The notes: a model not told the origin generated them from the letters alone. A DNA stretch of 64,000 nucleotides from Blastocatellia bacterium (GCA_035575515.1 DATLXU010000136.1:14850-78849); one strand, 5' to 3'; shown: positions 8,165 to 64,000, counted from the stretch's first letter. Made by a program: numbers and translations.

Positions 8165-8874
8165 TGCTCACGCCAGAAAGACTTTATGAAGAAGAACTGC
8201 TCGATGCGGGAGCGGGCACGGATGAGGACGTCAGGCGGAACCTCAAAGACCTGCGCCGCGTCAATCGCTATCTCGGCGGAACAAAGACCGTTCTTCGCGC
8301 GCTCTCTTCAATCATCGAGCGAGAGAAGATAGAAGAGTTGTCGTTGCTCGATGTGGGAACAGGCTCGGCAGACATACCGACGGCTGTGGTCGAGTGGTGC
8401 GGGGCGCGCGGCATCGAGTCATTCATAGCCGCCCTTGACATAAGCGAGCGCAACCTGAGAATCGCGCGAACGAGGTTGGGCATAAGCTCTGAAGTAAAAT
8501 TAATCCGCGCTGACTCGTTAAAGCTGCCGTTTGGTGACCGCAGCTTTGATTTCATGACGGCTTCGCTCTTCATGCATCACTTTCGCGATGAAGACGTAGT
8601 GCGTTTGCTTCGAGACTTCGCTCGCGTGGCTCGTCGCGCGATTATAATAAATGATCTTGTGCGCAATCTGATTCCTTATTACTTTGCGAAGCTGACGGGA
8701 CCGCTACTTGCGACAAGCTTTTTGACTCGCAACGATGGACCTGTGTCTGTGCTGCGAGGCTTCACGGCTGATGAGTTAAAACAACTAGCTGAGCGCGCAG
8801 GCTTGCGACGCTTCACCGTGCGGCGCGTGTTTCCTTATCGTTTGCTCTTGATTGCAGAAAACAGTAGGCAGTAG
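8161..8874 (+). CDS. class I SAM-dependent methyltransferase
   Basis: The ATG at 8161 overlaps the upstream stop (ATGA). It has the LLDVGTGSADIP SAM-binding motif. The track ORF start at 8023 is an in-frame upstream extension. Confidence 0.75.
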   Translation: MMLTPERLYEEELLDAGAGTDEDVRRNLKDLRRVNRYLGGTKTVLRALSSIIEREKIEELSLLDVGTGSADIPTAVVEWCGARGIESFIAALDISERNLRIARTRLGISSEVKLIRADSLKLPFGDRSFDFMTASLFMHHFRDEDVVRLLRDFARVARRAIIINDLVRNLIPYYFAKLTGPLLATSFLTRNDGPVSVLRGFTADELKQLAERAGLRRFTVRRVFPYRLLLIAENSRQ

Positions 8875-10138: not shown

Positions 10139-10309
10139 AAGGCGAATAGTGAAGAAGGGAAGAGATCGTATTCACACTTTCTGCAGATGACTTTTCCTGA
10201 TGCGCTATACACTCTTAATTTTCTATCCACATTTTGGAACTTTTCGCCCGCCCGCGCGTGCTTGAAGGCGGAACAAATCTTTTCCCGCAAAACTCCAGGA
10301 GGTGCGCAG

Positions 10310-11338
10310 ATGCTTAGACGTTTTTATTTAATCACATCGCTTGCGACGGCGCTTGCCGTTGGCTTAGTGGTCGCACACGGCGAGACGGCCCAGAAGGACA
10401 AGCAGAAGGAAAAGGAAAAGACCGAAGAGAAGGAGAAGGATAAAGAGAAACCATTTTTCGTCTATGGCGATGGGCCGCGGGTCTTCGCCATAAACTCTAT
10501 GTTCGGGGAAGGCAGCTATCTCGGTGTATTTCTTGAAGACGTGACGCCCGAACGCATGAAGGAATTGGGGCTTTCGGAAGAGCGCGGCGCGGTCATAATG
10601 AAAGTTGTCAAAGGCAGCCCAGCCGAGCGTGCAGGGTTGAAAGAGAATGACGTCGTGGTCTCTTACAACGGGCGGAGAATTGACAGCGTGCGCGAGTTTC
10701 AGCGATTGCTCTCGGAAACTCCTGCGGGCCGCAACGTGACCATCGAAGTCATTCGCGGGGGAAGCCATCAAACAGTTGCGGCGACCTTGAGCAAGAACAC
10801 GCCGAGCACGACTTGGATCAGGCCCGAGTTCAACGATGAGTTCTGGAAGAAGAACGAAGAAGCGTTGAAGAGAGCCGAAGAAGCCAGGAAGCTGTCGGAA
10901 GAGAAGATGAAAGAGCTTCAGGAAAAGTGGAAAAAGAACCCGCCTGATTTCGGCAGCTTCGCTTTCGACGCGCCGGGCCGCTACATGTTCTTCAGCGGCA
11001 AGCGCATGGGCATAGGCGTTGAATCGCTGACACCGCAACTGGCCGAGTTCTTCGGAGTGAAGGATGGCAAAGGCGTTCTCGTGACCGAAGTCGAAGAGAA
11101 CAGCCCGGCTGCCAAAGCTGGAGTCAAAGCGGGCGACGTGATAACTGCGATTGATAACGAGCCGGTTGATAGCGTTCGCTCACTGATGAGCGCGATGTCG
11201 AAAAAACAGGAGGGCACGGTAACTCTTTCGGTGCTACGCAACCGCGCCGAGCAAACCTTCACGCTCACAATTGAAAAGCGCGAAGTGCCGCGCGCGCCGC
11301 GCGCAAGGTTGAGCGCCCGCGCTGGAGCTTTTATTTAG
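10310..11338 (+). CDS. secreted PDZ-domain protein (two PDZ-like segments, K/E-rich linker)
   Basis: A GGAGG RBS precedes the ATG at 10310. It has a signal-peptide-like N-terminus and two PDZ segments (VKGSPAERAGLKENDVV and VEENSPAAKAGVKAGDVI). Confidence 0.75.
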   Translation: MLRRFYLITSLATALAVGLVVAHGETAQKDKQKEKEKTEEKEKDKEKPFFVYGDGPRVFAINSMFGEGSYLGVFLEDVTPERMKELGLSEERGAVIMKVVKGSPAERAGLKENDVVVSYNGRRIDSVREFQRLLSETPAGRNVTIEVIRGGSHQTVAATLSKNTPSTTWIRPEFNDEFWKKNEEALKRAEEARKLSEEKMKELQEKWKKNPPDFGSFAFDAPGRYMFFSGKRMGIGVESLTPQLAEFFGVKDGKGVLVTEVEENSPAAKAGVKAGDVITAIDNEPVDSVRSLMSAMSKKQEGTVTLSVLRNRAEQTFTLTIEKREVPRAPRARLSARAGAFI

Positions 11339-50966: not shown

Positions 50967-51581
50967 TTGATAGCGCAACTATCCGGCAAACTTATTCATA
51001 AACAGCCTAACACAATTATCATTGATGTCGGAGGCGTTGGTTACGAAGTTACGATTCCGCTTTCGACATTCTATGAATTGGGCGAGCCGGGCGCGGACGT
51101 TACGCTCAAGATTCACACGCACGTTCGCGAAGACCTCATTCAGCTATTCGGTTTCTTTACCGCTCTTGAAAAAGAACTATTCTTGAAGGTAACAACCGTG
51201 AGCGGCATAGGCCCGAAGCTCGGCATCACGATGTTATCAGGGATGCCTGCTGCTGAATTAATTCAGGCGATTCGCAACAACGACCTTGCGCGGCTCACGG
51301 CGATTCCAGGGGTCGGGCGCAAGACGGCTGAGCGAGTCGTCGTCGAGTTGCGTGATAAGCTCGGCGCAATTGCCATCGAAGAGACTGTGAGCGCGGCAGC
51401 CGCGAGCCGCGAGCTTGTCGTGACGGAAGCCGTGGTGCGCGACGACACGATTGCGGCGCTTATGTCGCTCGGCTACCCGAAGCCCGTTGCTGAAAAAGCA
51501 GTCTCAGCCGCAATGCGCGAAGAAGGCGAGCGCACAATAGAATCGGTTTTGAAGCGCTCGCTCATGCGACTCTCGCGTTGA
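50967..51581 (+). CDS. ruvA: Holliday junction DNA helicase subunit RuvA
   Basis: TTG start with a GGGGGA RBS; MIAQLSGKLI...; HhH motifs GIGPKLG and IPGVGRKTAERV. Confidence 0.9.
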   Translation: MIAQLSGKLIHKQPNTIIIDVGGVGYEVTIPLSTFYELGEPGADVTLKIHTHVREDLIQLFGFFTALEKELFLKVTTVSGIGPKLGITMLSGMPAAELIQAIRNNDLARLTAIPGVGRKTAERVVVELRDKLGAIAIEETVSAAAASRELVVTEAVVRDDTIAALMSLGYPKPVAEKAVSAAMREEGERTIESVLKRSLMRLSR

Positions 51582-51757: not shown

Positions 51758-52495
51758 ATGTCAGCAGAGTCGGCAAACTTAAATCTTGCGCCGTGTCCGG
51801 ATTGCGGCGGCACCGGATGGGAGTTAGTCGAAGGTCGCGGCGTTCGTCCCTGCCGCTGCAAAAAAGCGGCGCGTTCGGAAGTTCTTCTCTCGCAGGCGCG
51901 CATACCCGCCCGTTTCATGCATTGCTCGTTCGATAACTTCGAGCCGCTTCAACCGTCGCTCTATCGCGCGCTGATGAACGCGCGCAAGTTCGTCGACGAG
52001 TACCCGCTCGTTGATGTCGGGCTGTTATTTTTGGGAAGCTGTGGGGTGGGGAAGACTCATTTAGCGGTTTCTGCCTTGAAGGAGTTAATCAAGAAAGGGA
52101 TTCCCGGACTTTTTTACGACTTCCGCGATCTGCTCAAAGAGATTCAAGACAGCTACAACCCGAACACGCACACTTCGGAATTGAAGATTCTGACTCCCAT
52201 CTTCGACGCAGAGGTGCTCGTGCTTGACGAGCTTGGCGCAAGCAAGCCGACCGAGTGGGTACAGGAGACTATCACTCACATCATCAACAAGCGATACAAC
52301 GACAAGAAAGTAACCATCTTCACCTCGAACTACCTCGACATGCCAATCGGCACAGCTTACGGCGAGACGCTCACGGAACGCGTGGGTGTGCGATTGCGTT
52401 CGCGCCTTTATGAGATGTGCCGCCGCATTCTCATTGAAGGCGACGACTACCGCAAGATTATGGACAGCAAGCGCGGCGGGCGCTTCTCGTCATAG
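51758..52495 (+). CDS. DnaC/DnaI-like AAA+ ATPase (putative helicase-loader-type protein) with N-terminal zinc ribbon
   Basis: CPDCGGTGW...CRC ribbon; Walker [11 protein letters not shown]; Walker B VLVLDELG. Confidence 0.7.
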
Positions 52496-52531: not shown

Positions 52532-54292
52532 TCATCGCTGCGACGTAGCTGGCTTCAGCTCGACATTGGCCGTTGTCAAGGTCGTGCCCATCACGCGCTG
52601 AAGCTCGGCAACGGCTTTGTTGTAATCTGTCATTGCGCGAAGCTCGCGGCCACGCGCTTCAGACAGAGCGTTTTGCCGTTCAAGCACAAAATAGGTCGTC
52701 GAAAGCCCTGCTTGAAATCGGCGCACTTCGCTTTCGTATTGCTTCTCGGCAGCCTCGCGCGAAGCCTGCGCTGTCTCGACCCGCTGCCGCGCAGTCTCAA
52801 CAGCTTGAATTGCGTTTCGCACTTCCACCTCGATTGATTGTTCGAGCAATTTGCGCTGCGAATCAATCTTGCGCCCTTCCGCAAGCGCGCGCCCCAATTG
52901 CCCTTCAGCAGTTCTATTCTTCAACGGAAAGCCGAATGAGACGCCGAAGCGAAACGTGCGAAAGTCGTTGCTAAATAGATTCTTCAAGCTCTGCGTGTAT
53001 CCGCCGATTAGAAAATCGGGCAGCGGCGCAGTCGGCGGTACAATTATCGGTGGAACGCCTGCAAGTCCCGACAACTCGTTGACGCGGTCAAGCAGTAAAC
53101 CGGTCGTTGACGAGAACGGATTGCCTGTGAGCGAGCGCGTTCCGCTCAGTCCCGTCGAAGTGTACGACGCAATCAAATCAACCTGCGGCTTCGTCTGGTT
53201 CTCGAAAAACTTCGTGTCAGTCTGATTGATCTCTTTTTGCAATTCGTTCTGAGCAAGCTCAGGGCGATTAGCAAACGCCGCGCGAGTGGCTTCGTTCAAA
53301 TCCAATGTCACATCGCGCAGGTCGGGCGTTTCAGTTGGGATGATCGGCTGATTCCACTGCTTCGCCTGCCGATCTCCGAGTATCAACTGTTTGAGCGCGT
53401 TTTCGGCTCGCGTGACCGCTTCGAGCGCGGTCAACACAGCTTCGTTCCTTCTCTCCAATTCAACTTCGACCGACACAAGCTCGATAGGCGCAAGCGTGCC
53501 TTCGTTGACTTTGCGTTGATTCGTCTCAAGCTGCGTGCGCGCCAGATCAACCGCTTCACGGCGAATCTGAACGTCTTTCAACGCGAATACTAAATCCCAA
53601 TAAGCGCGCTCGACGCGCGAGACTATGTCAATTGCGCGCTGGCGAAATTGACTGTCCGAAAGATCGAGCCTGCGATTCGCAATGCGAATGCGGCGGCGCG
53701 CATCGTCAATCGAGAAGTTGCGAAGTATTGGCTGACGAATCTGAATGTTGAGCGCAGTGTTGTACTGCGGGTTGAGCGAGACAAACTGGCTGTTTGTGTC
53801 AGACCGCGAGTTCGTGAATTGCGCGAGCCACTGGCCGCCCGTCGGCAACAACTGCGTCGCGGCAAAATCATAATTAAGCGTGCTCGTCGTCAGCGTGCCG
53901 TTTGCGCCGCCCGCGAGCACAGAGCCTACGGGCACAGTCCGATGCTCGTAGAAAATCGAGGCAGTCGTGCCGATGTCTCGCGCGCCGCGCGCCGCGAACA
54001 GATCGTAATCGGCCTGCTGCACGTTTATGCGCTCGACTTCGAGTTCGCGATTATTTTCGAGCGCCATCTTCACGGCATCAAACATCGTGAGCGCGAGCGG
54101 CTGGCTCTCGTCCACGCCGACGCGCGGCACGACTGGCGTTTGCGTGGTTGCAGGAGCCGCTTGCTTTGCCTCTTGCGATGGCTTCTCGGCGAGCTTGACG
54201 ATTTGCGCCGCGCTCGTCATCGGCAATGAAATGCAAACCAATGACGCAATTGCAAATGCGCGATAAATGAATGCCTTCTGATTAATCCACAT
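52532..54292 (-). CDS. outer membrane efflux protein (TolC-like OMF) of the RND system
   Basis: Start chosen at the ATG at 54292, preceded by an AAAGG RBS. The signal peptide is MWINQKAFIYRAFAIASLVCISLPMTSAAQ. The track ORF's first 135 codons overlap the RND gene 3' end and are rejected. Confidence 0.8.
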   Translation of the reverse strand: MWINQKAFIYRAFAIASLVCISLPMTSAAQIVKLAEKPSQEAKQAAPATTQTPVVPRVGVDESQPLALTMFDAVKMALENNRELEVERINVQQADYDLFAARGARDIGTTASIFYEHRTVPVGSVLAGGANGTLTTSTLNYDFAATQLLPTGGQWLAQFTNSRSDTNSQFVSLNPQYNTALNIQIRQPILRNFSIDDARRRIRIANRRLDLSDSQFRQRAIDIVSRVERAYWDLVFALKDVQIRREAVDLARTQLETNQRKVNEGTLAPIELVSVEVELERRNEAVLTALEAVTRAENALKQLILGDRQAKQWNQPIIPTETPDLRDVTLDLNEATRAAFANRPELAQNELQKEINQTDTKFFENQTKPQVDLIASYTSTGLSGTRSLTGNPFSSTTGLLLDRVNELSGLAGVPPIIVPPTAPLPDFLIGGYTQSLKNLFSNDFRTFRFGVSFGFPLKNRTAEGQLGRALAEGRKIDSQRKLLEQSIEVEVRNAIQAVETARQRVETAQASREAAEKQYESEVRRFQAGLSTTYFVLERQNALSEARGRELRAMTDYNKAVAELQRVMGTTLTTANVELKPATSQR

Positions 54293-54390
54293 AGCTTTTA
54301 CCTTTAAACCACAGAGAACGCGCGTGGGTCGCCGAACAAACCATCTCTGTGTCTTCTCCGTGCCTCTGTTACTCGGTAGTTCTTCTGCCA

Positions 54391-57300
54391 TTATCTGAAC
54401 AAACTTAGAAACGTTGACGTTGCGGATGCCAGCTTGCGACGCGCCCACGCGAACGGCATTCGCGCGCCTCGCGCGATGCGACCCCATACAGTCGAATTCG
54501 CCCAGTCGTCGAAGATCGAATAAGCCACTGGCGTCACGAGCAGCGTCAGCAGCAAACAGAGCGTCTGCCCGCCGATGATCATTATCGCAACCGACCGACG
54601 CGAGCCTGAGCCGGGTCCCGTACCAAATGCCATCGGAATCATCCCTGCGACAAGCGCAAACGTTGTCATAAGTATTGGTCTCATACGGTCGCGGCACGCT
54701 TGAATTATCGCGTCGTATCGCGGCATGCCTTCTCTTCGACGCAGGTTGTTCGCATGGTCAATCTGCAAGATCGAGTTCTTCTTGACGATTCCGAACAGCA
54801 CGAGCACGCCGATTGACGAGTAGATGATCGAAAAGTTCTGGCCCGTCGCGAAGAGCGAGATGATCGCGAACGGTATCGAAAGCGGCAGACTCAGCAAGAT
54901 GGTCACCGGATGGATGAAGCTCTCGAACTGCGCCGCCAAAATCATGTACATCAGAATCAGCGACAGCCCAAACGCCATCAGGAACGCGCCCGCAGCGCGC
55001 CCCATCTCGCGCGAGCGCCCGCTGAACTCCGCCTCATATCCGTGATCCATCTGAACCGAGGGCAATTGCTTCATCAATCCCGCCATCACTTCCGATGCCG
55101 AGTGCCCGCGCGCGACGTTAGTCGAGATTACGACCTGCCGCTGCCGATTGTAACGATCAATCTGTGCCGGACCCGTGCCTTCGCTGAGCGAGACGACGTT
55201 ATCGAGCCGCACGTTTCCGGCCTTCAATGAGGGGACATAGAGTTGCGCGACGCCGCTCGCGTCAGCGCGATACTTTTCATCAACGCGCAACCGAACGTCG
55301 TAACGATCATCGCCTTCTTTGTATGAAGAGATGACCTGCCCGCCGACCATCGTGCGCAGCGCGCCCGCAATTGAGCCGACTGATACGCCAAGATCGCTCG
55401 CCTTGTCGCGATTGATGTTGACGCGCACTTCGGGCTTGCCCTCTTCGAGCGTCGTGTCAGTGTCGACAGCGCCCGGCGTGTTGCGCAGAATCTCGACAAC
55501 CTTGTTTGAATACTCTTTCAGTTTGGCAATCTCTGGCCCGCGAATGACGAACACAACGTCGGCGTTCACAAAGCCGCCGCCAGAGATTGCGCCGGGAACC
55601 TGCACAGCAGGGTGATAGGGCAAATATTCAGGATTTGATTGGAACCAGTTGCGCGCTGCCGCAATCAATTGCTGCTGCGAGACACTGCGCTCCTCCATCG
55701 GGACAAGATCGAAGAATATCGAAGCGCGATTGACTCGCTGCTGCTGGTCAGCGCCTACCGATGTGAGGATATGACCCACAACGCCCTGCGGAAAATCATT
55801 CTTCATCCTCTCGCTCAACTCGCGAACAACTTTGTCCGTCGTATCAAGCGATGCGCCTTCAGGGAGTCTCAGCGTCACTTCCATCTGCGCTTGATCATCC
55901 TGCGGCAAAAAGTCTTTTCCGATCCACTGGAAGAGCCAGAACGAAGAGATAGTCACAAGAAACGCCGCCAGAACAATCGTCTTGCGATGTGCCATTGACC
56001 ACTTGAGCATCGCCGTGTACGGGCCGTCAATGTAGCGGTACAGCTTCGATTCTTTCGACGAGTGTTTGCCTTCCTTCTTCCTGATGAACCGCGAAGCAAG
56101 CATCGGAGTGATCGTAAAGCTCACAAACAGCGACACGGCTATTGCAAACGCAGCAGTCCATCCGAAGCCCGCCATGAAGCGACCGACTATTCCGGTCATA
56201 AACGCGAGCGGCAGGAAGATGATTATCAGCGAAAAGGTCGTCGCCATGACCGCAAGGCCAACGTCTTTCGTGCCAGCTATCGCAGCGGCAATCGGAGACA
56301 TGCCCTTTTCTTCGATGAAGTGGTAGATGTTTTCAAGCACAACTATTGCGTCGTCTATTACGATTCCGACGCACAGCACGAGCGCGAGCATCGTGATGTT
56401 GTTGAGCGTAAGGTTCAAATACCACATCAGCGCGTAGGTGGCGATGATTGAGGTCGGAATCGCTATGCTTGAAATGATCGTCGCGCGGAAGTTGCGAATG
56501 AAAACGAGCACGACGAGCGCGGCAAAAAGCGCGCCCATCAACAGGTGCTCCTGAATCGCGTGGAACGAACCTTTTATGAACGTCGACTGATCGCGCACGA
56601 CCTGCACGTTGAAGTCAGGCGGCAGATTCTTTTTAATCTCTGCGAGCCGCTGCTTCACCGAGTCAACAACCTGCACAGTGTTTGTGCCTGACTGCTTGCG
56701 AATCTCAAGCACGACGGCCTGCTCGCCATCGAGTCGCGCTATAGTGCGAGGTTCTTCAACGCCGTCTTCAACATAAGCGATGTCGCGCACGCGAACAGGA
56801 GCCGAGCCGACATTGGCGACGATGATGTTGTTAAAATCTTCGACGCGCTCAACACGGCCCATCGTGCGCAGTGTCATCTCATTTGCGCCCTGCTCCAATC
56901 GCCCGCCAGGAATCTCGATGTTCTGCGAAGCGATGCCCTGCCGCACCTGATCAACCGTCAGGTTGTAGGCGCGCAACTTGTTCGGGTCGAGAACAATTTG
57001 AATCTCGCGCTTGCGGTCGCCGATGAATCGGACCTGGCCGACGCCGGACATTGACTCGATGTTCTGCTTAACCTGCTTGTCTACTATTTCAGTTATCTCG
57101 CGCAGGCTACGCTTGCCCGACACGGCTACAGACATCACGGGCGCGGCGTCAACGTCGAGCTTTTCAATCACAGGCGGGTCGGCGTCTTCGGGCAGGTCCC
57201 TGAGAATGCGGTTGACGCGGTCACGCACGTCTGAGGCTGCCTCATCCCCGTTTCGCTCAAGCACGAAAGTGATGAAGACCTGCGACACGCCTTCAGCAGA

Positions 57301-57552
57301 AACTGATCGAAGCTCGTCAATGCCTTCAATCGTGTTGACAGCTTCTTCAATCTTCTTCGTGACCTGCGACTCGATCTCTTCGGGCGACGCGCCTTGCACA
57401 ACTGTCGTGATGGTGATGGTCGGGAATTCAACCTTCGGGAAGAGGTCAACGCCCAGCTTCAGATAGGCGAATCCGCCAATCACGATCATGGCAAGCCCAA
57501 TCATCGTCGCGAAAACTGGCCGTTTAATACATATCTCTGCGAGCTTTTGCAT
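54391..57552 (-). CDS. RND multidrug efflux transporter permease (AcrB/AcrD/AcrF family)
   Basis: 1053 aa, 12 TM, two large periplasmic loops; MQKLAEICIKRPVFATMIGLAMIV N-terminus. Confidence 0.95.
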   Translation of the reverse strand: MQKLAEICIKRPVFATMIGLAMIVIGGFAYLKLGVDLFPKVEFPTITITTVVQGASPEEIESQVTKKIEEAVNTIEGIDELRSVSAEGVSQVFITFVLERNGDEAASDVRDRVNRILRDLPEDADPPVIEKLDVDAAPVMSVAVSGKRSLREITEIVDKQVKQNIESMSGVGQVRFIGDRKREIQIVLDPNKLRAYNLTVDQVRQGIASQNIEIPGGRLEQGANEMTLRTMGRVERVEDFNNIIVANVGSAPVRVRDIAYVEDGVEEPRTIARLDGEQAVVLEIRKQSGTNTVQVVDSVKQRLAEIKKNLPPDFNVQVVRDQSTFIKGSFHAIQEHLLMGALFAALVVLVFIRNFRATIISSIAIPTSIIATYALMWYLNLTLNNITMLALVLCVGIVIDDAIVVLENIYHFIEEKGMSPIAAAIAGTKDVGLAVMATTFSLIIIFLPLAFMTGIVGRFMAGFGWTAAFAIAVSLFVSFTITPMLASRFIRKKEGKHSSKESKLYRYIDGPYTAMLKWSMAHRKTIVLAAFLVTISSFWLFQWIGKDFLPQDDQAQMEVTLRLPEGASLDTTDKVVRELSERMKNDFPQGVVGHILTSVGADQQQRVNRASIFFDLVPMEERSVSQQQLIAAARNWFQSNPEYLPYHPAVQVPGAISGGGFVNADVVFVIRGPEIAKLKEYSNKVVEILRNTPGAVDTDTTLEEGKPEVRVNINRDKASDLGVSVGSIAGALRTMVGGQVISSYKEGDDRYDVRLRVDEKYRADASGVAQLYVPSLKAGNVRLDNVVSLSEGTGPAQIDRYNRQRQVVISTNVARGHSASEVMAGLMKQLPSVQMDHGYEAEFSGRSREMGRAAGAFLMAFGLSLILMYMILAAQFESFIHPVTILLSLPLSIPFAIISLFATGQNFSIIYSSIGVLVLFGIVKKNSILQIDHANNLRRREGMPRYDAIIQACRDRMRPILMTTFALVAGMIPMAFGTGPGSGSRRSVAIMIIGGQTLCLLLTLLVTPVAYSIFDDWANSTVWGRIARGARMPFAWARRKLASATSTFLSLFR

Positions 57553-57590
57553 ATTTCCTCAGTAGTCTATGATCAATGGTTAGTTATCTG

Positions 57591-57628
57591 AGTACTATTG
57601 CCTTGAAAATGGCTCTGGAAGCCTGTTT
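57591..57628. repeat. 38-bp imperfect palindrome ATTGCCTTGAAAATGGCT-CTGGA-AGCCTGTTTCAAGGC; second copy of the element at 8888-8925 with the loop inverted
   Basis: Near-identical arms to the copy at 8888-8925, with loop CTGGA versus TCCAG. It lies in the RND-MFP spacer. Confidence 0.65.
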
Positions 57629-57663
57629 CAAGGCAACAGCCACCCTGGCCCCCGACCCTTATT

Positions 57664-58875
57664 CTATGATGCAGCCACGCTTGCTCCATCGTGGAGCTGT
57701 TCGGTGTTGCTCGTTATAACACGGTCGCCGAGCTTGACACCCTCAACAATCTCGACCAGCGAGCCGTCGTGCGTTCCTAATTTCACCTGCCGCTCGACTG
57801 CTTTGTCGCCTTCGACAACGAAGACTTTGTTTATGCCCGCGAGCGATACGACTGCTTTTTCAGGAACCATCAGCGCCGTGCCCTTAGCGTTCGATACGAT
57901 CTGCGCGCGGGCGAACATGCCGGGTCGCAACTGACCTGATTCGTTCGGCACTTCGGCTTCCGCGATGAGCGAGCGATTCTTTTCGTCAACCGAAGGGTTG
58001 ATGCGTCGGATTATGCCTTTGAACTCGCGGTCAGGGAATGAATCAACCTTAAGCGTCACGGTCTGGCCCTGTCCAATGTTTGCCGCGAAGGTTTCCGGCA
58101 CTTCGAGCCTGAGCCTGAGCGGATGTATTTGAACGATGGTCACGATTGGCTTGCCCGGCTGAAGGTACTCGCCACGCGAGGCAATCTTCTCTTTAACAAC
58201 GCCGTTGATCGGAGAGATGATGGCCGTGTCGGTCAACTGCTTCTTTGCAAGGTCGAGCGCGGCGCGCTTTTCTTCGAGCACAGCTTCGAGATTGCGCACG
58301 TTTTCAAGCGCGGCTTCGTAACGCGCTTCGGCCTGCTCGAACGTTCGCTGATAAACGTCTAGCTGCTGCCTGGAAATATCGCCAGTCTCTGCCAGCTTCT
58401 CGGCGGCGTTCAGATCGTAGCGGGCGCGCTCAAGCCCTGACCGTGCCTGTCGCACGTCGGGCTGCTTTTCGCGGTTGAGCTTCTCGCCCCGCTTCACGCC
58501 AAGTCTAGCTTCGGCCTGACGCAGCGCAGCTTCAGCCTGTTCGACCTTCAATCGAAGCTCGCGCTCATCAAGGCGGCCAATCGTCTGCCCGCGATGCACG
58601 GGCGAGCCTACGTCAACCGTGATCTCATCGAGGTTGCCCGATGCCTGGCTCGACACAGTCACTTCGTCTTCAGCTTCGAGCGAGCCTACGACTTCGAGAC
58701 CGCGCTGAATGTCGCGTTCTACGACCTGCGTCGTCGAAACCTGAATGGGCGCGCCTTGCGCGCTGTTCATATTCTTAGTGTTCGCCTCCTGCTTGCTGCC
58801 CGAACAGGCTGCTAGCAGGGTGAGCGACGAAAGCAGGAAAACAGCAGCGAGTTTCTTTGCATTCCTTTTTATCAT
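57664..58875 (-). CDS. RND efflux membrane fusion protein (periplasmic adaptor, HlyD family)
   Basis: Start placed at the ATG giving lipoprotein signal MIKRNAKKLAAVFLLSSLTLLAAC. It has a coiled-coil hairpin and a beta-barrel. Track start 58914 is an alternative. Confidence 0.85.
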   Translation of the reverse strand: MIKRNAKKLAAVFLLSSLTLLAACSGSKQEANTKNMNSAQGAPIQVSTTQVVERDIQRGLEVVGSLEAEDEVTVSSQASGNLDEITVDVGSPVHRGQTIGRLDERELRLKVEQAEAALRQAEARLGVKRGEKLNREKQPDVRQARSGLERARYDLNAAEKLAETGDISRQQLDVYQRTFEQAEARYEAALENVRNLEAVLEEKRAALDLAKKQLTDTAIISPINGVVKEKIASRGEYLQPGKPIVTIVQIHPLRLRLEVPETFAANIGQGQTVTLKVDSFPDREFKGIIRRINPSVDEKNRSLIAEAEVPNESGQLRPGMFARAQIVSNAKGTALMVPEKAVVSLAGINKVFVVEGDKAVERQVKLGTHDGSLVEIVEGVKLGDRVITSNTEQLHDGASVAAS

Positions 58876-58946
58876 TGCGGTGGTCATCTTGTATCTCATT
58901 ACTAAGTTGCTCATTAGTGAGCGGGGTAGGGAACATGTCTTCTTAG

Positions 58947-59612
58947 TTAAACGGATTTTCGCCTGTTGCTCTTGTGTTCGGGCGCGCGAATGCCGCTCAT
59001 GAAAAGCTCAACGAAGCGGTCTGCAATCGCGCGGTTAGAGAGTTTTACGTCATCGAATTGGAACAGGTTCCGAACCTGCACCTGATGCAGAACCATTCCA
59101 ACGAAAGCGCGCGCGGCCACCGCCGGGTCTACCTTGCGGAACGCTCCGTCGGCGATGCGCTGTTTGATATAGCGGCGTATGTGATTTTTTGTTTCGCGGG
59201 CGCTCGTGTGAAAAAATATCTCAGACAGGTCGTGCCCTTCGAGCGCGCTGAAGAGCAGCAGCCGCATGAAGGTCTTGTCTTTCTCATGAAACTCAAGCAT
59301 TTCGAATGCGAGCGTGCCGAAAAAGGCGGCGTCGTCTTTGCGACTCGCGGCTTCCTTCAGATGGACTTGGAGTCGCTCGGCGCTCTGCCGGACCTTGTAA
59401 TCTAAAATCGCTGTGTAGAGATCGTCTTTTGTGGCGAAGTGGCGAAAGATGATGGCTTCGCTTACGCCCGCGCGGTCGGCAATCTCTTTAGTAGTCGTGC
59501 CGCTGAACCCCTTTTGAGAGAAAAGCTCCGCAGCGACATTGACAATCTGAAGCCGCCTGTCGCGGGCCGTCATGCGCGCGCCTGCCGCCCTGCTCGCAAT
59601 TGCAGTGACCAT
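58947..59612 (-). CDS. TetR/AcrR-family transcriptional regulator
   Basis: HTH TTKEIADRAGVSEAIIFRHFATKDDLY. It is the first gene of the efflux operon. Confidence 0.85.
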   Translation of the reverse strand: MVTAIASRAAGARMTARDRRLQIVNVAAELFSQKGFSGTTTKEIADRAGVSEAIIFRHFATKDDLYTAILDYKVRQSAERLQVHLKEAASRKDDAAFFGTLAFEMLEFHEKDKTFMRLLLFSALEGHDLSEIFFHTSARETKNHIRRYIKQRIADGAFRKVDPAVAARAFVGMVLHQVQVRNLFQFDDVKLSNRAIADRFVELFMSGIRAPEHKSNRRKSV

Positions 59613-59632
59613 ATGAATCCCCCGATTGAAGT

Positions 59633-59646
59633 AAGTAAGTACTTAC
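59633..59646. promoter_or_regulatory. putative TetR operator: perfect 14-bp palindrome AGTAAGTACTTACT
   Basis: Lies 21 bp upstream of the tetR start codon. Confidence 0.45.
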
Positions 59647-60053
59647 TATAGCAAGCCGAACGAACCAAAGCAAATTTAAGTTCGATTTTTTTCGCTGCCG
59701 GCCTCTTTGTCGGGGAAGATGAAGCTTTGTTATTATCATCCCGCTTTTACTAGGGGGAGCGAAAGGACGAACAATACGGAGCGATTCGCAATGGCACTGA
59801 CTCAGGCGGCAACCCGATAAACGGCACGCCGCGAGCGAAGAACTCTGTGACGACTTGACGAAGCAGGCGAGATCGTCATGAGGCGAAATGGCGCTCAATC
59901 GGAGGATATGAGTGCACTAAAACGCTCATCCTCTTTCCTGTTTTTCCTTTTCGCCTCATTTCTTAACACGCTCTATTTGACATGCGATGGACGGTCGAGT
60001 ACCATCCTCGCGCCTGTTAAGGGTTGTATTGAGCCTTACGCGTTCAATCTGAA

Positions 60054-60548
60054 ATGGCTATGGAAACGGCGACAAACGATTCTGTGCGGTTGCGACGTGC
60101 AACGGCGGATGACGAATCTTTTCTGTTTGAGTTGTATCGAAGCGTGCGAGCCGAAGAGATGGCCGCATGGGGATTAGATTCAGCGCAGCAGGAGATGATT
60201 TTGAAGTTACAGTTCACGGCTCAACAGCGCCACTACGACATAGCTTTTGCGGGGGCCGATCACCAAATCATAATTCTCAATGAGCAGCCAGCCGGAAGAA
60301 TTATGGTTTATCGGTCTGAGAGCGAGGTTCGGCTCGTTGACATCGCTCTTTTGTCGGAGCACAGAGGAAAAGGCGTTGGGGCTATGATAGTCAGTTCACT
60401 GATTGAAGAATCGCGGGCGGCCAGCAAGCCTGTCACGCTCCATGTTGCAAAGGATAATCGCGCCGCTCGGCTCTATGAGCGGCTTGGGTTTCAAATAACG
60501 GGCGATACTGGCAGCCATTATAAAATGGAGTGGTGGCCTAAAGATTAA
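60054..60548 (+). CDS. GNAT-family N-acetyltransferase
   Basis: 164 aa. The acetyl-CoA-binding motif region is RGKGVGAMIVSSLIEES...RLYERLGF. Confidence 0.8.
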   Translation: MAMETATNDSVRLRRATADDESFLFELYRSVRAEEMAAWGLDSAQQEMILKLQFTAQQRHYDIAFAGADHQIIILNEQPAGRIMVYRSESEVRLVDIALLSEHRGKGVGAMIVSSLIEESRAASKPVTLHVAKDNRAARLYERLGFQITGDTGSHYKMEWWPKD

Positions 60549-60579
60549 TCAATCGAGTTAATCAATCGAGCGGGGATTT

Positions 60580-60885
60580 ATGAATATGCCGGAGCGTTTT
60601 TCTATTGATATGTTCTCAGATTGCGTGAATACGAAGTTCGTGGTGCATTACGGCGATTCGCAAACAGCGAATCTTGAGCTTGTTAGCGTGACAGATGTCG
60701 GATCGTCGGCTCGCCAGGTTCAGTTCTCTCTGGTATTTGTGGGGCGCATCAATGGCGCAATCGAGCAGAGAATTTACCGCCTTGAGCATGAAAAGCTCGG
60801 CCAGCTCGACCTGTTTCTTGTTCCCATCGGCATGGACAAAAACGGCGTGCAGTACGAAGCCATTTGCAATTACGTGATTGAATAG
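60580..60885 (+). CDS. hypothetical protein (101 aa); cytoplasmic paralog of the Tat-secreted protein at 61509-62006
   Basis: Shares the pattern Y-x-L-E/Q-H-E/A-K-L-G-x-L/F-x-L-F-L/I-V-P with the 165-aa minus-strand ORF. Confidence 0.5.
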   Translation: MNMPERFSIDMFSDCVNTKFVVHYGDSQTANLELVSVTDVGSSARQVQFSLVFVGRINGAIEQRIYRLEHEKLGQLDLFLVPIGMDKNGVQYEAICNYVIE

Positions 60886-60886
60886 C

Positions 60887-61426
60887 ATGGAAATCGGACA
60901 AAAGAGAATCGCGCTCGATGATTCACGGGTCATAAGTTTCAGGCCCACAGCGCCGGAGGACGAACCGTTTCTCCAATCAGTCTATGGCAGCACGCGACTT
61001 GAAGAGCTTGCGCTCACGAACTGGAGCGAAGAACAACGTAATGCCTTCATTAAGATGCAATTCAACGCTCAGCAGATTCATTACCGCGAGTATTATCCGA
61101 GCGGCGAGCAATTCATCATTCTCGCAGATGGCAATGCTGTAGGACGTCTATACGTCGCCGAGATTGAAAAAGAGATACGCATACTCGACATAACCGTTCT
61201 TCCCGAACGCCGAAGCGCAGGCATAGGAACGCCAATCATTAGAGAATTGATGAACGAGGCGACGAGGATCGGAAAGCCGCTTCGCATTTACGTCGAAAGC
61301 TACAACCGCTCGCGCGGATTGTTCGAGCGGTTGGGGTTCGTGAAGTCGGGCGAGAGCGGCTACAGCTACCTGATGGAGTGGCGGGGGGAGAGACCCGCGG
61401 CAGCGCGCGAAGAGCGCGAGCAATGA
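60887..61426 (+). CDS. GNAT-family N-acetyltransferase (paralog of 60054-60548)
   Basis: The ATG lies 2 nt after the upstream stop. Motif region is RRSAGIGTPIIRELMNEA...GLFERLGF. Track start 60878 is a TTG extension. Confidence 0.75.
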   Translation: MEIGQKRIALDDSRVISFRPTAPEDEPFLQSVYGSTRLEELALTNWSEEQRNAFIKMQFNAQQIHYREYYPSGEQFIILADGNAVGRLYVAEIEKEIRILDITVLPERRSAGIGTPIIRELMNEATRIGKPLRIYVESYNRSRGLFERLGFVKSGESGYSYLMEWRGERPAAAREEREQ

Positions 61427-61508
61427 CGACTCCATCGCTAGTGACAGCTACGCCTGCGCTCTTCGCATGATCTATTACTGCCTTCGCTGCGAGCGATAGT
61501 TTTGTGGA

Positions 61509-62006
61509 TCAGGGATTAACGCGATTGATGATCGCCGTGCAGGTCGTCCCTGATCCTGCGCTCGCATCGCCCGGCACTATGAACAACTGAAACTTGCCGA
61601 GCTTGGCGTGCTGCACCGCATAAGTGTTCTGTCGCAAAGAGAGGGCTTGTGAGCCTGCGAATTTGAGGGCAAAGCATTCTTTTGTGCTCCTGCCCGTTCC
61701 CTTGACATAAGGCGGGTTGAGGTTCTGCACCTCAATTAAAATAAGGTCTCCAAGCTTCACATCGTTTGAAGAGAAGCTGTAGGTTGTCATAAGGGTATTT
61801 GTGAACATCTCCCTTGTGATATTTGCGAGCGGATCCTTGAGCGACTCTGCGGGAATCTCCGAGCCGATACCTGATCCAAGACGTTTCTTGTAGCCGCCCT
61901 GAGCAAAGGCTGAAGCGCTGAATCGCCCCGTAGCCAGTGCCGTTAAACCCATAATGCTGCCTGCTCTGAGAAAGCTGCGTCTCGAAGTTATCATTTTCCC
62001 CTCCAA
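61509..62006 (-). CDS. Tat-signal secreted hypothetical protein (165 aa)
   Basis: Twin-arginine motif SRRSFLRAGSIMGLTALATGRFSASAFA. The C-terminal 100 aa are homologous to the ORF at 60580-60885. Confidence 0.6.
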   Translation of the reverse strand: MEGKMITSRRSFLRAGSIMGLTALATGRFSASAFAQGGYKKRLGSGIGSEIPAESLKDPLANITREMFTNTLMTTYSFSSNDVKLGDLILIEVQNLNPPYVKGTGRSTKECFALKFAGSQALSLRQNTYAVQHAKLGKFQLFIVPGDASAGSGTTCTAIINRVNP

Positions 62007-62097
62007 AGAGATTTAGGATGCCTGATGCCTCGTGGACATTGTTGCGAGTCTAAGGCTTCAGTCGCGAGCATTCAACCCAAATTATTCTCACCAAGTA

Positions 62098-62126
62098 TTG
62101 ACTTATCTTGTATCAATGTATAGAAT
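62098..62126 (+). promoter_or_regulatory. sigma-70-like promoter candidate (TTGACT-N17-TAGAAT) for the tail-collar gene array
   Basis: Lies in the AT-rich divergent spacer, about 160 nt upstream of the ATG at 62284. Confidence 0.4.
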
Positions 62127-62283
62127 CGCTGCCACTGAAAGTAGTATTACATGAAGTGATGTATTGAAGACCTCCGGTTGGGGATAAGTTCAAGCAGTCC
62201 ATCAAGGCGTTAGGTCACGTCTGGCCTCGTTAGGTCTTTCTGTTGTTTAGCGGTTGGGCAAATAAGCTAGGAGGAAAAAGATA

Positions 62284-62787
62284 ATGGCTGAACCTTTCCT
62301 GTCAGAAATCAGAATCATGAGTTTTGTCTTCGCGCCCAAAGGCTGGGCGCTTTGCAATGGGCAACTTCTGCCCATCAACCAGAACCAAGCGCTGTTTTCG
62401 CTGTTGGGCACGACCTATGGCGGCGATGGTCGTGTGAACTTCGCATTGCCCGACCTGCGCGGGCGAGTCCCCATTCACATGGGCAGCGGGCACACGCTTG
62501 GCGAACGAGGCGGCGAACAGGCGCACACGCTTTCGATTTCCGAATTGCCGACGCATACGCATGTGCTGGTTGGAAGCAACAACGCCGCAACAACCGACAC
62601 ACCCGCAGCGAACCTCGTCTTGGGTCAGCCCGGTCTGGATCTGTATCGCGCGCCTACCAGCCTCGTAGGCATGGACCCCGGCACCATCGCAAATGTCGGC
62701 GGCAGCCAGGCGCATCTCAACATGCAACCGTTTCTGACGCTGTCGTTCTGTATTGCGCTTCAGGGCATCTTCCCCAGTCAGAATTAA
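62284..62787 (+). CDS. phage tail collar domain protein (Mdp/microcystin-dependent-protein-like), paralog 1
   Basis: AGGAGG RBS. The N-terminus MAEPFLSEIRIMSFVFAPKGWALCNGQLLPINQNQALFSLLGTTYGGDG and C-terminus GGSQAHLNMQPFLTLSFCIALQGIFP are conserved collar-domain blocks. Confidence 0.85.
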   Translation: MAEPFLSEIRIMSFVFAPKGWALCNGQLLPINQNQALFSLLGTTYGGDGRVNFALPDLRGRVPIHMGSGHTLGERGGEQAHTLSISELPTHTHVLVGSNNAATTDTPAANLVLGQPGLDLYRAPTSLVGMDPGTIANVGGSQAHLNMQPFLTLSFCIALQGIFPSQN

Positions 62788-62797
62788 GGAGGAAACA

Positions 62798-63298
62798 ATG
62801 GCACAACCTTATGTTGGAGAAATCAGAATGTTCGCCGGAAACTTCGCTCCGGCAGGCTGGATGTTTTGCGAAGGCCAATTGCTGCCTATCTCCGAAAACG
62901 AGACGTTGTTTCAATTGATAGGCACGACCTACGGCGGCGACGGAGAGTCAACCTTCGCATTGCCCGACCTGCGAGGCCGCATCCCGATTCATCAGGGCAA
63001 TGGCTTCGTGCTTGCCGAGACGGGAGGCGCGGAAGAGATTACGCTTACCGTGCAACAAATTCCCGCTCATAGTCATGCATTGCTTGCTTCAGCCGATCCA
63101 TCCAGCGCCCGCTCGCCGCAAAATAACGTTCTTGGACGCACAGGCGCAGAGGCTTACGCTTCTGAGTTCACGCCGCAAGTCTTGTCTCCGCAAAGCATGT
63201 CGGCAGTAGGAGGCAGCCAGCCGCATACGAACTTCCAGCCGTACCTTTGCATTGACTTCATCATCTCGCTGTTCGGAATCTTTCCGAGCCAGACGTAA
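62798..63298 (+). CDS. phage tail collar domain protein, paralog 2
   Basis: An AGGAGG RBS precedes the ATG at 62798. It has the same conserved N- and C-terminal blocks and a divergent middle. The track start 62753 is an extension. Confidence 0.85.
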   Translation: MAQPYVGEIRMFAGNFAPAGWMFCEGQLLPISENETLFQLIGTTYGGDGESTFALPDLRGRIPIHQGNGFVLAETGGAEEITLTVQQIPAHSHALLASADPSSARSPQNNVLGRTGAEAYASEFTPQVLSPQSMSAVGGSQPHTNFQPYLCIDFIISLFGIFPSQT

Positions 63299-63379
63299 AA
63301 AGAAGCTTTGCAGTTGAAAGCACACAGGTGATCGTTTCGATGTTCGAGGTTCATAAGGCAAAAGATAAGGAGAACTTTC

Positions 63380-63892
63380 ATGGCAGACCCTTTTGTAGCT
63401 GAAATTCGCATCTTTCCTTTCAACTTTGCTCCGCAAGGCTGGGCCTTTTGCGATGGCCAGATACTTCCGATTTCACAAAACACGGCGCTGTTTTCGCTGT
63501 TGGGCACAACCTACGGCGGCGACGGCAAATCGAATTTTGCGTTGCCTGATCTGCAGGGGCGCGCGCCGATGCATCCGGGACAGGGGCCAGGACTCTCATT
63601 GCATGATCTCGGAGAGACGGGCGGAAGCGAGACAGTTACTCTCCTGGAATCTGAGATACCATCGCACAGCCACGGCGTCAGCATGTCGGTGCGACCCGCT
63701 GATAATCTCGATCCCGGCGGACTTGCTCTCGGCACGGGCAACAACGTCTATGTCGCGCCGGGTAATCAGGTCTCTTTCTCGGGCAACGCGTTAGCGCCAG
63801 CAGGCGGCGATCAGCCGCACAACAATATGCAGCCGTACCTGACGTTGAATTTCTGTATCGCGCTGCAAGGCGTCTTTCCGCCTCGCTCCTGA
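63380..63892 (+). CDS. phage tail collar domain protein, paralog 3
   Basis: AAGGAG RBS; MADPFVAEIRIFPFNFAPQGWAFCDGQILPISQNTALFSLLGTTYGGDG ... GGDQPHNNMQPYLTLNFCIALQGVFP. Confidence 0.85.
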   Translation: MADPFVAEIRIFPFNFAPQGWAFCDGQILPISQNTALFSLLGTTYGGDGKSNFALPDLQGRAPMHPGQGPGLSLHDLGETGGSETVTLLESEIPSHSHGVSMSVRPADNLDPGGLALGTGNNVYVAPGNQVSFSGNALAPAGGDQPHNNMQPYLTLNFCIALQGVFPPRS

Positions 63893-63897
63893 TCGGG

Positions 63898-64000
63898 TGC
63901 TGGATCATTCATGCGCCGCTGTTACTGGGCGACGCCAACGGCATCGTGCTGACGAACACGGGCGGCAGCTTCACTATCACCGGCAGCGGCACGGCTGACA
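63898..64000 (+). CDS. partial ORF of a Gly/Thr-rich protein with no canonical start codon in the window (..APLLLGDANGIVLTNTGGSFTITGSGTAD), truncated by the window end
   Basis: This is the only open frame at the right edge. It has no in-frame ATG/GTG/TTG after the stop at 63763-63765, and the frame is shifted relative to collar paralog 3. Confidence 0.25.

Follow-up and report, generated by a model that had tools for sequence, protein, structure and literature searches.

What kind of system is formed when two genes for GNAT acetyltransferases flank a small open reading frame (ORF), and a relative of the small protein, encoded on the opposite strand, carries an export signal? The question is raised by positions 60054-62006 of a 64,000-nucleotide stretch of DNA from a Blastocatellia bacterium (GCA_035575515.1, DATLXU010000136.1:14850-78849), which is referred to, in its full length, as the window. 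An initial annotation compared the arrangement with antitoxin-GNAT toxin pairs and considered an exported version of the small protein, bearing a twin-arginine translocation (Tat) signal, to be atypical for an antitoxin. The analysis described here agrees with the latter remark, whereas the toxin-antitoxin analogy is contradicted by the fold of the small protein, by homology, by gene order and by natural fusions between GNAT enzymes and the small domain, DUF6916. The block GNAT1-DUF6916-GNAT2 and the divergent Tat-signal DUF6916 gene are, with high confidence, parts of one conserved cassette that occurs in about ten bacterial phyla. The core of this cassette consists of three position-specific orthologous tail-collar (Collar) genes, one dedicated GNAT gene (two in Blastocatellia-type loci) and a gene for a cytoplasmic DUF6916 barrel of about 100 amino acids (aa); very often a Tat-signal DUF6916 paralog is added, and usually a very long ORF lies alongside.

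A Conserved Cassette of GNAT, DUF6916 and Collar Genes

All ORFs of the block were recovered at the positions reported by the initial annotation. GNAT1 (60054-60548, plus strand; 164 aa; Pfam Acetyltransf_1, E 3e-11) and GNAT2 (60887-61426, plus strand; 179 aa; Acetyltransf_1, E 9e-9) flank the 101-aa ORF (60580-60885, plus strand), whose product lacks a signal peptide, and the proposed paralogy of the two enzymes is borne out by 37% identity over 157 aa (pairwise BLAST, E 3e-36). An HMM (hidden Markov model) search with the 101-aa domain assigned it to PF21880, DUF6916 (E 2.2e-24, 85.8 bits), which is not a housekeeping family. The divergent gene (61509-61994, minus strand) encodes a protein of 161 aa that matches the same family (E 2.6e-14, 53.5 bits; residues 63-150, approximately 61557-61820); both proteins exceed the PF21880 gathering score of 27 bits. 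Alignment of the two (29% identity over 98 aa, E 4e-10) sustains the suggested homology between the 101-aa ORF and the C-terminal part, about 100 aa, of the Tat protein, for which the length of 165 aa given earlier is to be replaced by the likelier 161 aa. Thus, one domain is present in a cytoplasmic and a Tat-signal version beside a tail-collar array, as had been claimed. The array comprises Collar 1 (62284-62787; 167 aa; PF07484, E 6.5e-28; a PHROG tail protein, E 9e-26; no signal peptide), Collar 2 (62798-63298; 166 aa; PF07484, E 1.6e-29) and Collar 3 (63380-63892; 170 aa; PF07484, E 1.6e-29), all on the plus strand. The window holds no further copies of any of these components.

For comparison, 80 loci were retrieved by scanning one genome per species with the peptide pattern [LM]GxLDLFLVP; their six-frame ORFs were searched iteratively with the window proteins, and statistics were compiled for the 50 loci with at least 4 kb of sequence on both sides. 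A GNAT gene of the subfamily found in the window lies within 300 bp of DUF6916 in 45 of these 50 loci. Three or more Collar genes are likewise found in 45 loci, and 49 have one within 4 kb of DUF6916. In 39 of the 50, a Collar gene has an ORF of at least 700 aa no farther than 1.5 kb away, a count which derives from six-frame calls and is inflated in high-GC genomes. The combination of three Collar genes with GNAT and DUF6916 is present in the window itself, and in the same genome (locus L088) the giant gene lies just past the window end. The carriers include Acidobacteriota, Actinomycetota, Chloroflexota, Gemmatimonadota, Myxococcota, Verrucomicrobiota, Abditibacteriaceae and Alpha- and Gammaproteobacteria. 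Synteny identical to that of the window was observed in six loci (L001, L002, L007, L009, L010, and L091); in L001 and L002, for example, the order is GNAT-DUF6916-GNAT, a longer DUF6916 gene on the opposite strand, three Collars and a giant repeat protein. Among carriers annotated in RefSeq are plasmid pB of Sinorhizobium meliloti LMB1 and a megaplasmid of Ruegeria sp. TM1040, where the genes are named “hypothetical protein,” “N-acetyltransferase,” three times “tail fiber protein,” and giant Ig-domain or “choice-of-anchor D” protein.

The orientation of the DUF6916/GNAT pair varies, with 49 convergent pairs, 24 in the order GNAT to DUF6916, 11 in the order DUF6916 to GNAT and 7 divergent. In most single-GNAT cassettes, the two genes are convergent with 3' ends overlapping by 10-25 bp (e.g., L086 8989-9767 and L087 8968-9818). 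Consequently, DUF6916 would be transcribed separately there, with possible antisense interference at the gene ends. DUF6916 genes are also tied to Collar genes directly: in L003-L005, a 108-aa DUF6916 ORF and the Collar gene that follows it share 4 nt, without an intervening GNAT, and in L064, L073, and L085 a distance of 6-31 nt separates a Tat-DUF6916 gene from Collar 1, which follows on the same strand. A search for further partners by single-linkage clustering of six-frame ORFs was confounded by overlapping spurious ORFs in high-GC loci and was useful solely for the giant-gene region and for an extra Tat protein described below. Additional genes were noted. The Ruegeria cassette (L087) encodes two proteins without a Pfam domain, one of 405 aa between GNAT and Collars (9815-11032) and one of 297 aa upstream of DUF6916 (7773-8666), and in S. 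meliloti PUD1_2-like and DUF6895 proteins follow the long neighbor (L086 16498-17815). These extra proteins may be lineage-specific accessories.

The GNAT Enzymes

Membership of both enzymes in the GNAT superfamily is indicated by matches to the fold HMM and by the acetyl coenzyme A (AcCoA) motif A, Q/R-x-x-G-x-G/A. In GNAT1, the R-x-x-G-x-G signature (R104, G107, and G109) is kept together with N135 and RLGF at residues 143-146, and GNAT2 likewise retains the residues conserved in the subfamily, namely the AcCoA motif, N135, RLGF and the N-terminal segment. This segment, D..FL..LY...R..E...W...Q...MQF.AQ...Y, is the distinctive feature of the cassette GNATs. Among Blastocatellia-type loci, GNAT1 and GNAT2 form orthologous pairs, while single GNATs of other phyla are nearer GNAT2 in 32 cases and nearer GNAT1 in 16.

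The best profile matches in the PDB are an “N-terminal acetyltransferase, GNAT family” (6wqb, E 6e-12) and RimI-type enzymes; none of the best 60 matches is by name one of the GNAT toxins TacT, AtaT, KacT or ItaT. The RimI equivalog model scores a cassette GNAT at 39.6 bits vs. a cut-off of 86.4, and no family-level name was obtained from NCBIfam for any cassette component.

Might the enzymes then simply confer resistance to drugs or metabolites, as part of the efflux operon that precedes them, with DUF6916 and the Collars as unrelated neighbors? Directly upstream of GNAT1, a divergent operon on the minus strand (52532-59612) encodes a TetR regulator (58947-59612), a membrane-fusion protein of the resistance-nodulation-division (RND) type (57664-58914), an AcrB-like pump (54391-57552) and an outer-membrane factor (OEP; 52532-54292), and the GNATs show weak NCBIfam matches to ArsN1 and aminoglycoside acetyltransferase (AAC) families. 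All of these matches fall far below their cut-offs, however, the cassettes of the relatives L001, L002, and L091 have no such TetR-RND operon beside them, and the linkage of GNAT, DUF6916 and Collars holds across phyla. A resistance role is therefore held to be almost certainly the wrong explanation.

DUF6916 and Its Fusion to GNAT

An AlphaFold2 model of the 101-aa protein consists of a short helix and a six-stranded beta-barrel (pLDDT 89, pTM 0.80). In a profile search of 1.84 billion representative proteins, DUF6916 was found in 8143 clusters (50% identity, E<=1e-3), most of which represent stand-alone proteins of about 100 aa. It is, consequently, a large family, to which no function has been assigned, and no mention of DUF6916 or PF21880 was found in the searched literature. 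The domain has no match in PADLOC, PHROG or NCBIfam, no tblastn match among 50,697 phage records, no relative in a scan of IMG/VR and no significant structural match in BFVD. A phage or prophage origin of DUF6916 was rejected, given that phage records, IMG/VR, PHROG and BFVD yielded no match.

Fusions of an N-terminal GNAT to a C-terminal DUF6916 domain were identified in three lineages, represented by P0076, P0215, and P0216 (267 aa), P0121 (286 aa) and P0132 (311 aa), which are 34-40% identical to one another. In all five proteins, the GNAT part scores closer to GNAT1 than to GNAT2, and the barrel part resembles the cytoplasmic DUF6916 more than the Tat paralog. The P0121 locus keeps the order of the window, with the fusion followed by GNAT2, an opposite-strand Tat-DUF6916 gene, three Collars and a giant Cadherin_5/Big_9/HYR protein, and a GNAT2-type gene also lies directly after P0216. 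These two loci lead to the conclusion that GNAT1 and the 101-aa ORF are the split version of a two-domain enzyme. Both domains of the natural fusion P0076 are modeled with confidence by AlphaFold2 (mean pLDDT 92), with residues 156-167 between them forming a disordered linker. The barrel seems to be attached by a tether and not to form part of the active site, although this model is based on a shallow paired alignment.

The fusions bear directly on the comparison with type II toxin-antitoxin modules, in which DUF6916 would be an antitoxin that neutralizes GNAT2, a tRNA-acetylating toxin. The small ORF does lie directly upstream of GNAT2, whose start follows 2 nt past its stop and whose size is close to that of known GNAT toxins. 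The established GNAT toxins are paired with ribbon-helix-helix (RHH) antitoxins in a bicistronic operon (PMC9431474). DUF6916, by contrast, is a beta-barrel that matched only PF21880 at E<=0.01 and neither RHH nor DUF1778 families, and the GNATs show no detectable relation to TacT, AtaT, KacT or ItaT, none of which is named among their best 60 PDB matches. Nor is an order of antitoxin before toxin conserved, since that arrangement is in the minority (11 pairs) relative to the convergent one (49). Moreover, the fusions in three lineages join DUF6916 to the upstream enzyme, of GNAT1 type, and neither an exported paralog nor an almost invariable association with Collar genes (49 of 50 loci) would be expected of a toxin-antitoxin module, for which PADLOC gave no hit either. 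This explanation is accordingly considered extremely improbable. In the same search (E<=0.01), none of the seven proteins of the locus had a PADLOC match, and a known defense system was rejected on this basis.

A different role for the barrel would be that of a PilZ-like ligand-sensing module that controls the GNAT, with the Tat paralog binding the same small ligand outside the cell and with a GNAT substrate that may be unrelated to the Collars. The flexible linker of the fusion model suits a regulatory module, and sensor-GNAT fusions have a precedent in the mycobacterial protein acetyltransferases that combine a cyclic nucleotide-binding domain with a GNAT domain. On the other hand, DUF6916 is not matched by the PilZ Pfam model, and the RxxxR and D/NxSxxG motifs of cyclic di-GMP binding are absent from its conserved columns, so that it does not qualify as a PilZ/YcgR-N effector domain. 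The sensor hypothesis also leaves the coupling of DUF6916 to Collar genes in GNAT-less loci, and the near-obligate Collar linkage in general, unexplained; it is regarded as rather improbable. A gene for a PAS-GGDEF-EAL protein is located in the window at 48280-50784, that is, near a DUF6916 gene of PilZ-like fold, and nothing links the two.

The Collar Genes

The three window Collars are 49-55% identical to each other. Among 56 clean triplets, Collar 1, 2, and 3 have their best match in another locus at the corresponding position in 82, 84, and 92% of comparisons, respectively; judged from these matches, the three genes are ancient paralogs in a conserved order. Profile matches of Collar 2 in the PDB include a long tail fiber (8kec, E 7e-8) and the T4 gp12 short tail fiber (1ocy, E 6e-5), and Collar proteins also match phage tail proteins in PHROGs. 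A start methionine is located exactly four residues ahead of the Collar motif in 163 of 198 Collar proteins, none of which has a signal peptide. The N-terminus reads M-[A/S/T/G]-[E/Q/D]-P-[F/Y], with Ala (61%) or Ser (31%) as the most common second residue, which is always A, S, T or G, and with Pro in 97%. An HxH motif, as in T4 gp12, occurs in 173 of the 198 proteins.

Like virophage DSLV2, the window has three consecutive PF07484 genes of similar length. The three consecutive PF07484 proteins of the virophage were found to assemble into a 1:1:1 heterotrimeric fiber that binds Synechococcus cells, as demonstrated by co-purification, native polyacrylamide gel electrophoresis and electron microscopy (PMC12724248). 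On the strength of this analogy, the bacterial trio most likely forms a heterotrimer as well. Collar proteins of COG4675 were detected in soil metaproteomes (PMC5579227), and Collar paralogs show signs of positive selection in the acidobacterium Solibacter usitatus (PMC3174227). Both observations indicate that the system is expressed and evolving.

The proximity of DUF6916 and Collar genes might also mean that DUF6916 is solely an assembly or folding chaperone of the Collar heterotrimer, comparable to phage tail-fiber assembly proteins, while the GNAT acts elsewhere, for example on the giant protein or on a glycan. Phage fibers such as T4 gp12 require dedicated chaperones, and in many loci DUF6916 and Collar genes lie end to end or overlap. 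The searches of 50,697 phage records and of IMG/VR, however, failed to detect DUF6916, BFVD gave no significant structural match, and neither the recurrent fusion to GNAT nor the Tat export would be explained. Such an exclusive role is considered rather improbable.

The Tat-Signal Paralog

Inspection for motifs, without a trained predictor, supported the twin-arginine signal proposed by the initial annotation. The N-terminus of the 161-aa protein, MITSRRSFLRAGSIMGLTALATGRFSASAFA|QG, contains the S/T-R-R-x-F-L-K-like motif SRRSFLR, a hydrophobic stretch, a basic Arg in the c-region and an A-x-A cleavage site (AFA|Q); the predicted signal peptide comprises residues 1-31 (61902-61994, minus strand). 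Orthologs with an RRxFL signal are present in the syntenic loci L001, L002, L007, L009, and L091. In these Blastocatellia proteins (the window, L001, L002, L007, and L009), the first approximately 30 residues of the mature chain share LGSGIG..IPK..L.DPL ahead of the barrel, which may constitute a separate interaction segment.

Across the 80 loci, a Tat-signal DUF6916 was found in 23 by an automated rule and in about 32 by inspection, and 22 of the former 23 also contain a signal-less copy. Carriers include Actinomycetota, Chloroflexota, Myxococcota, Verrucomicrobiota and Proteobacteria. Some divergent proteobacterial forms have GxYxL...LxLQP in place of YRLEH..LG.LDLFLVP. Tat-like signals are enriched in the cassettes, with 21 instances inside vs. 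3 in the flanks, and Tat signals ahead of one or two DUF6916 domains also occur in representative proteins elsewhere (P0125, P0131, P0193, and P0068). In the four closest syntenic loci, the Tat paralog is the least conserved component (48-53% identity, relative to 60-69% for the cytoplasmic DUF6916 and 54-77% for the Collars).

The cassettes of Thermoanaerobaculia encode a conserved Tat protein of about 260 aa (RRRDFLALGSAG...) without a Pfam domain, located between GNAT and Collars (among others, L046 10766-11560, L051 10762-11553, L077 10773-11552, and L061 8638-9375). It may replace Tat-DUF6916 in this group. The idea that it is a hidden DUF6916 was rejected, as hhalign returned a probability of 0.6%.

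The Giant Neighbor

Past the window end, the genome encodes a giant Big_9/CLIPPER/HYR protein of more than 2600 aa. The domains of the long neighbor were examined in five loci (L001, L049, L086, L088, and L091), in each of which its predicted domains mark it as an exported surface protein with Ig or cadherin repeats. The L001 protein has 2664 aa and Big_9/HYR domains, that of Humibacillus is a Big_5/cadherin protein, and that of S. meliloti is a classical autotransporter with seven He_PIG repeats; Sec-like N-termini were recognized in L088 and L091. No toxin domain was detected in the giant neighbors, either by Pfam (L049 and L086) or in precomputed domain lists (L001, L088, and L091).

Fifty-four nt after Collar 3, an ORF begins at 63946 on the plus strand and leaves the window; it continues in L088 (13367-13684) as a fragment of 105 aa that is rich in N, T and G and by eye has the look of beta-helix repeats. 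It is followed by a Y1_Tnp (IS200-like) gene and then by the giant gene. The surface-protein locus may have been interrupted by an insertion in its 5' part.

If the Collar trimer and the giant protein were a lectin-like or tailocin-like weapon, the two DUF6916 copies could be cytoplasmic and periplasmic or wall-located immunity proteins, and the GNATs could keep the weapon inactive until its export. Exported toxins typically have immunity proteins that match the compartment, and in the four closest loci the Tat paralog has changed more rapidly than the other cassette components (48-53% vs. 60-78% identity). The positive selection on Collar paralogs in S. usitatus (PMC3174227) and a patchy distribution that includes rhizobial megaplasmids and suggests horizontal transfer would fit as well. 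Against an immunity function stand the giant neighbors themselves, which contain Ig, cadherin and HYR repeats, plus an autotransporter barrel in S. meliloti, instead of a toxin domain. Furthermore, there was no PADLOC hit, Collar knobs are binding modules and not known killers, and an immunity protein would not usually be found fused to an enzyme. The immunity hypothesis is considered rather improbable.

A Proposed Adaptor Mechanism

DUF6916 is referred to as an adaptor because it is the common partner of the GNAT, to which it can be fused, and of the Collar genes, whose ends its genes abut or overlap. In the mechanism proposed here, DUF6916 would recognize the Collar heterotrimer. In the cytoplasm, DUF6916, tethered to or partnered with GNAT1 and GNAT2, would present the Collar subunits for acetylation, the likeliest target of which would be their invariant mature Ala or Ser N-termini (M-[A/S]-[E/Q/D]-P-[F/Y]). 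The two GNATs would represent a lineage-specific duplication, perhaps specialized for different Collar subunits. The Tat pathway serves folded, oligomeric and metal-bearing proteins, and partners that lack a signal can hitchhike on those that have one. The Tat paralog would bind the same folded trimer, which is signal-less and, with its HxH motifs, probably carries metal, and would either take it across the membrane by hitchhiking or hold it outside, where the giant surface protein resides.

The explanation as a whole, that is, the conserved cassette together with the DUF6916 adaptor mechanism, is held to be plausible, if somewhat short of an even chance. The mechanism of adaptor, acetylation and Tat escort, taken by itself, is tentative and on balance doubtful. 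Of its rivals, the ligand-sensing barrel, the immunity pair and the exclusive chaperone each keep an appreciable probability. Still further reaching is the proposal that a phage tail-fiber knob has been domesticated across phyla: a heterotrimeric recognition tip would be folded in the cytoplasm, checked or marked by GNAT-DUF6916 through acetylation, exported by Tat-DUF6916 and mounted on, or work with, the giant protein. This scenario is thought to be unlikely; if true, it would describe a new modular cell-surface recognition apparatus and a new class of Tat hitchhikers with paired cytoplasmic and exported adaptors.

Several points weigh against the explanation, in addition to the inflated count of long ORFs mentioned above and the five loci to which the domain assignment of the long neighbor is confined. 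The loci were retrieved by one peptide pattern, and the statistics therefore describe that DUF6916 subfamily and not all 8143 clusters. The links between DUF6916, GNAT and Collars are all genomic, and the AlphaFold2 model of the fusion P0076 predicts no fixed interface between its GNAT and DUF6916 domains (pTM 0.61). As small-molecule acetyltransferases are also among the structural neighbors of the GNATs, a protein substrate of these enzymes is not established. A small second residue, as found in the Collars, is widespread among bacterial proteins. A Tat-DUF6916 is not recognizable in more than half of the retrieved loci, and in Thermoanaerobaculia the equivalent slot is held by the unrelated Tat protein of about 260 aa. 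Finally, the proposed meeting of trimer and giant protein poses a problem of topology in diderm bacteria, where Tat export ends in the periplasm whereas the passenger of an autotransporter is located at the cell surface.

Relation to Known Systems

Three groups of known systems resemble parts of the cassette on the side of the enzymes and their export. The GNAT-RHH toxin-antitoxin modules TacAT, AtaRT, KacAT and ItaRT (PMC9431474) share a small ORF that is located directly upstream of, and coupled to, a GNAT gene of about 170 codons. In the cassette, however, a DUF6916 barrel takes the place of an RHH or DUF1778 protein, the GNATs have no detectable similarity to the toxins and the order is not conserved; in addition, the small protein is fused to the GNAT in some genomes, carries a Tat signal in its paralog and is tied to Collar genes. 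The parallel with the bacterial and archaeal N-alpha-acetyltransferases (RimI, RimJ, RimL and the Ard1/Naa type) concerns the N-termini: those predicted for the mature cassette Collars are Ala, Ser, Thr or Gly, and RimI, RimJ, and RimL acetylate Ala and Ser. The cassette GNATs differ from RimI-type enzymes in falling far below the RimI cut-off, in their own N-terminal segment and in the dedicated DUF6916 partner. Among Tat hitchhikers such as the small and large subunits of hydrogenases and DmsAB, the twin-arginine signal of one subunit carries folded, metal-containing partners without a signal. In the cassette, where hitchhiking is a proposal, the bearer of the signal would instead be a cofactor-less barrel of about 130 aa with a cytoplasmic paralog in the same locus.

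The remaining parallels concern the Collars. Three consecutive PF07484 genes are shared with the tail of virophage DSLV2 (PMC12724248), and knobs of this kind are known from T4 gp12 and gp37 (1ocy, 1pdi, and 8kec). The bacterial Collars measure about 165-175 aa, and the DSLV2 heterotrimer has a theoretical mass of 58.3 kDa. Unlike the fibers of virophages and phages, the trio described here is located on bacterial chromosomes or plasmids with no virion genes nearby, and GNAT, DUF6916 and the giant Ig-repeat protein have not been reported from those fibers. RhiB is encoded in a small operon together with a partner with a signal peptide, RhiC, and its function is still unknown. Together with MrpAB of Microcystis, the rhiABC genes of Rhizobium leguminosarum are examples of COG4675 and provide a bacterial Collar protein outside phages (RhiB; PMC13133039). 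These systems differ from the cassette in that they have a single Collar gene and no GNAT; rhiABC is flanked by quorum-sensing regulators, and its products RhiA and RhiC contain no Pfam domain and are consequently not DUF6916 proteins.

No description of the cassette was found in Pfam, NCBIfam, PADLOC or the searchable literature, beyond which papers may exist. Since the nearest systems lack DUF6916, none combines these parts and no description was found, the cassette is taken to be an undescribed kind of system. Soil bacteria commonly encode proteins of COG4675, annotated as “microcystin-dependent” or tail-collar proteins, for which no clear role outside phages has emerged since rhiB and mrpB. 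In the present analysis, a single cassette brings them together with DUF6916, giant surface proteins that resemble adhesins and a dedicated GNAT subfamily, which yields concrete roles open to testing. If the adaptor and escort model is true, it would represent a new use of protein acetylation and Tat export, in which receptor-binding modules of phages are reused for the surface biology of bacteria. The carriers include the culturable S. meliloti LMB1, Ensifer adhaerens, Ruegeria sp. TM1040, Nocardioides soli, Humibacillus xanthopallidus, and Conexibacter arvalis, and the function is therefore directly testable.

Gene Starts, Local Signals and Flanking Genes

Tight coupling of GNAT2 to the small ORF had been claimed and is supported: the GNAT2 start codon (ATG at 60887) is situated one base past the TAG stop (60883-60885; ...gaaTAGcATGgaa), a position that is consistent with translational coupling. 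A TTG at 60878 is an alternative start, and public gene callers choose 60887 (179 aa). For the small ORF itself, the second ATG (60586; 99 aa) is probably the true start, because a GGGGA Shine-Dalgarno sequence is located at 60572-60576 and most homologs are 99 aa long and align from this Met. The ATG of Tat-DUF6916 (MITSRRSFLRAGS...) is preceded by GGAGG, and the TTG at 62006, which would give 165 aa, is less likely, with gene callers giving 161 aa.

Candidate sigma-70-like promoters, both with 10 of 12 consensus positions, are located on the plus strand upstream of GNAT1 (59977-60005; TTGACA-17-TACCAT) and in the divergent intergenic region upstream of the Collars (62098-62126; TTGACT-17-TAGAAT). 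Both are pattern matches only; the consensus scan returned 6 sites in the region where 3.0 were expected. A scan of positions 59000-64000 for riboswitches and other RNA elements gave no Rfam family match at E<=1. Further upstream, beyond the efflux operon, lie genes for RuvA (50967-51581) and IstB_IS21 (51758-52495), the latter with no adjacent IstA in public gene calls.

A protein identical to the 101-aa one is recorded from a metagenome-assembled genome of Blastocatellia (Acidobacteriota). The stop of GNAT1 and the spacer to DUF6916 are covered by a perfect 13-bp tandem duplication of TTAATCAATCGAG (60545-60570; Tandem Repeats Finder score 52, 100% match). Deletion of one TTAATCAATCGAG copy would bring DUF6916 into the GNAT1 frame, with an in-frame TAA persisting. 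In the relatives L090 and L091, the same junction is an open linker within a GNAT1-DUF6916 fusion protein.

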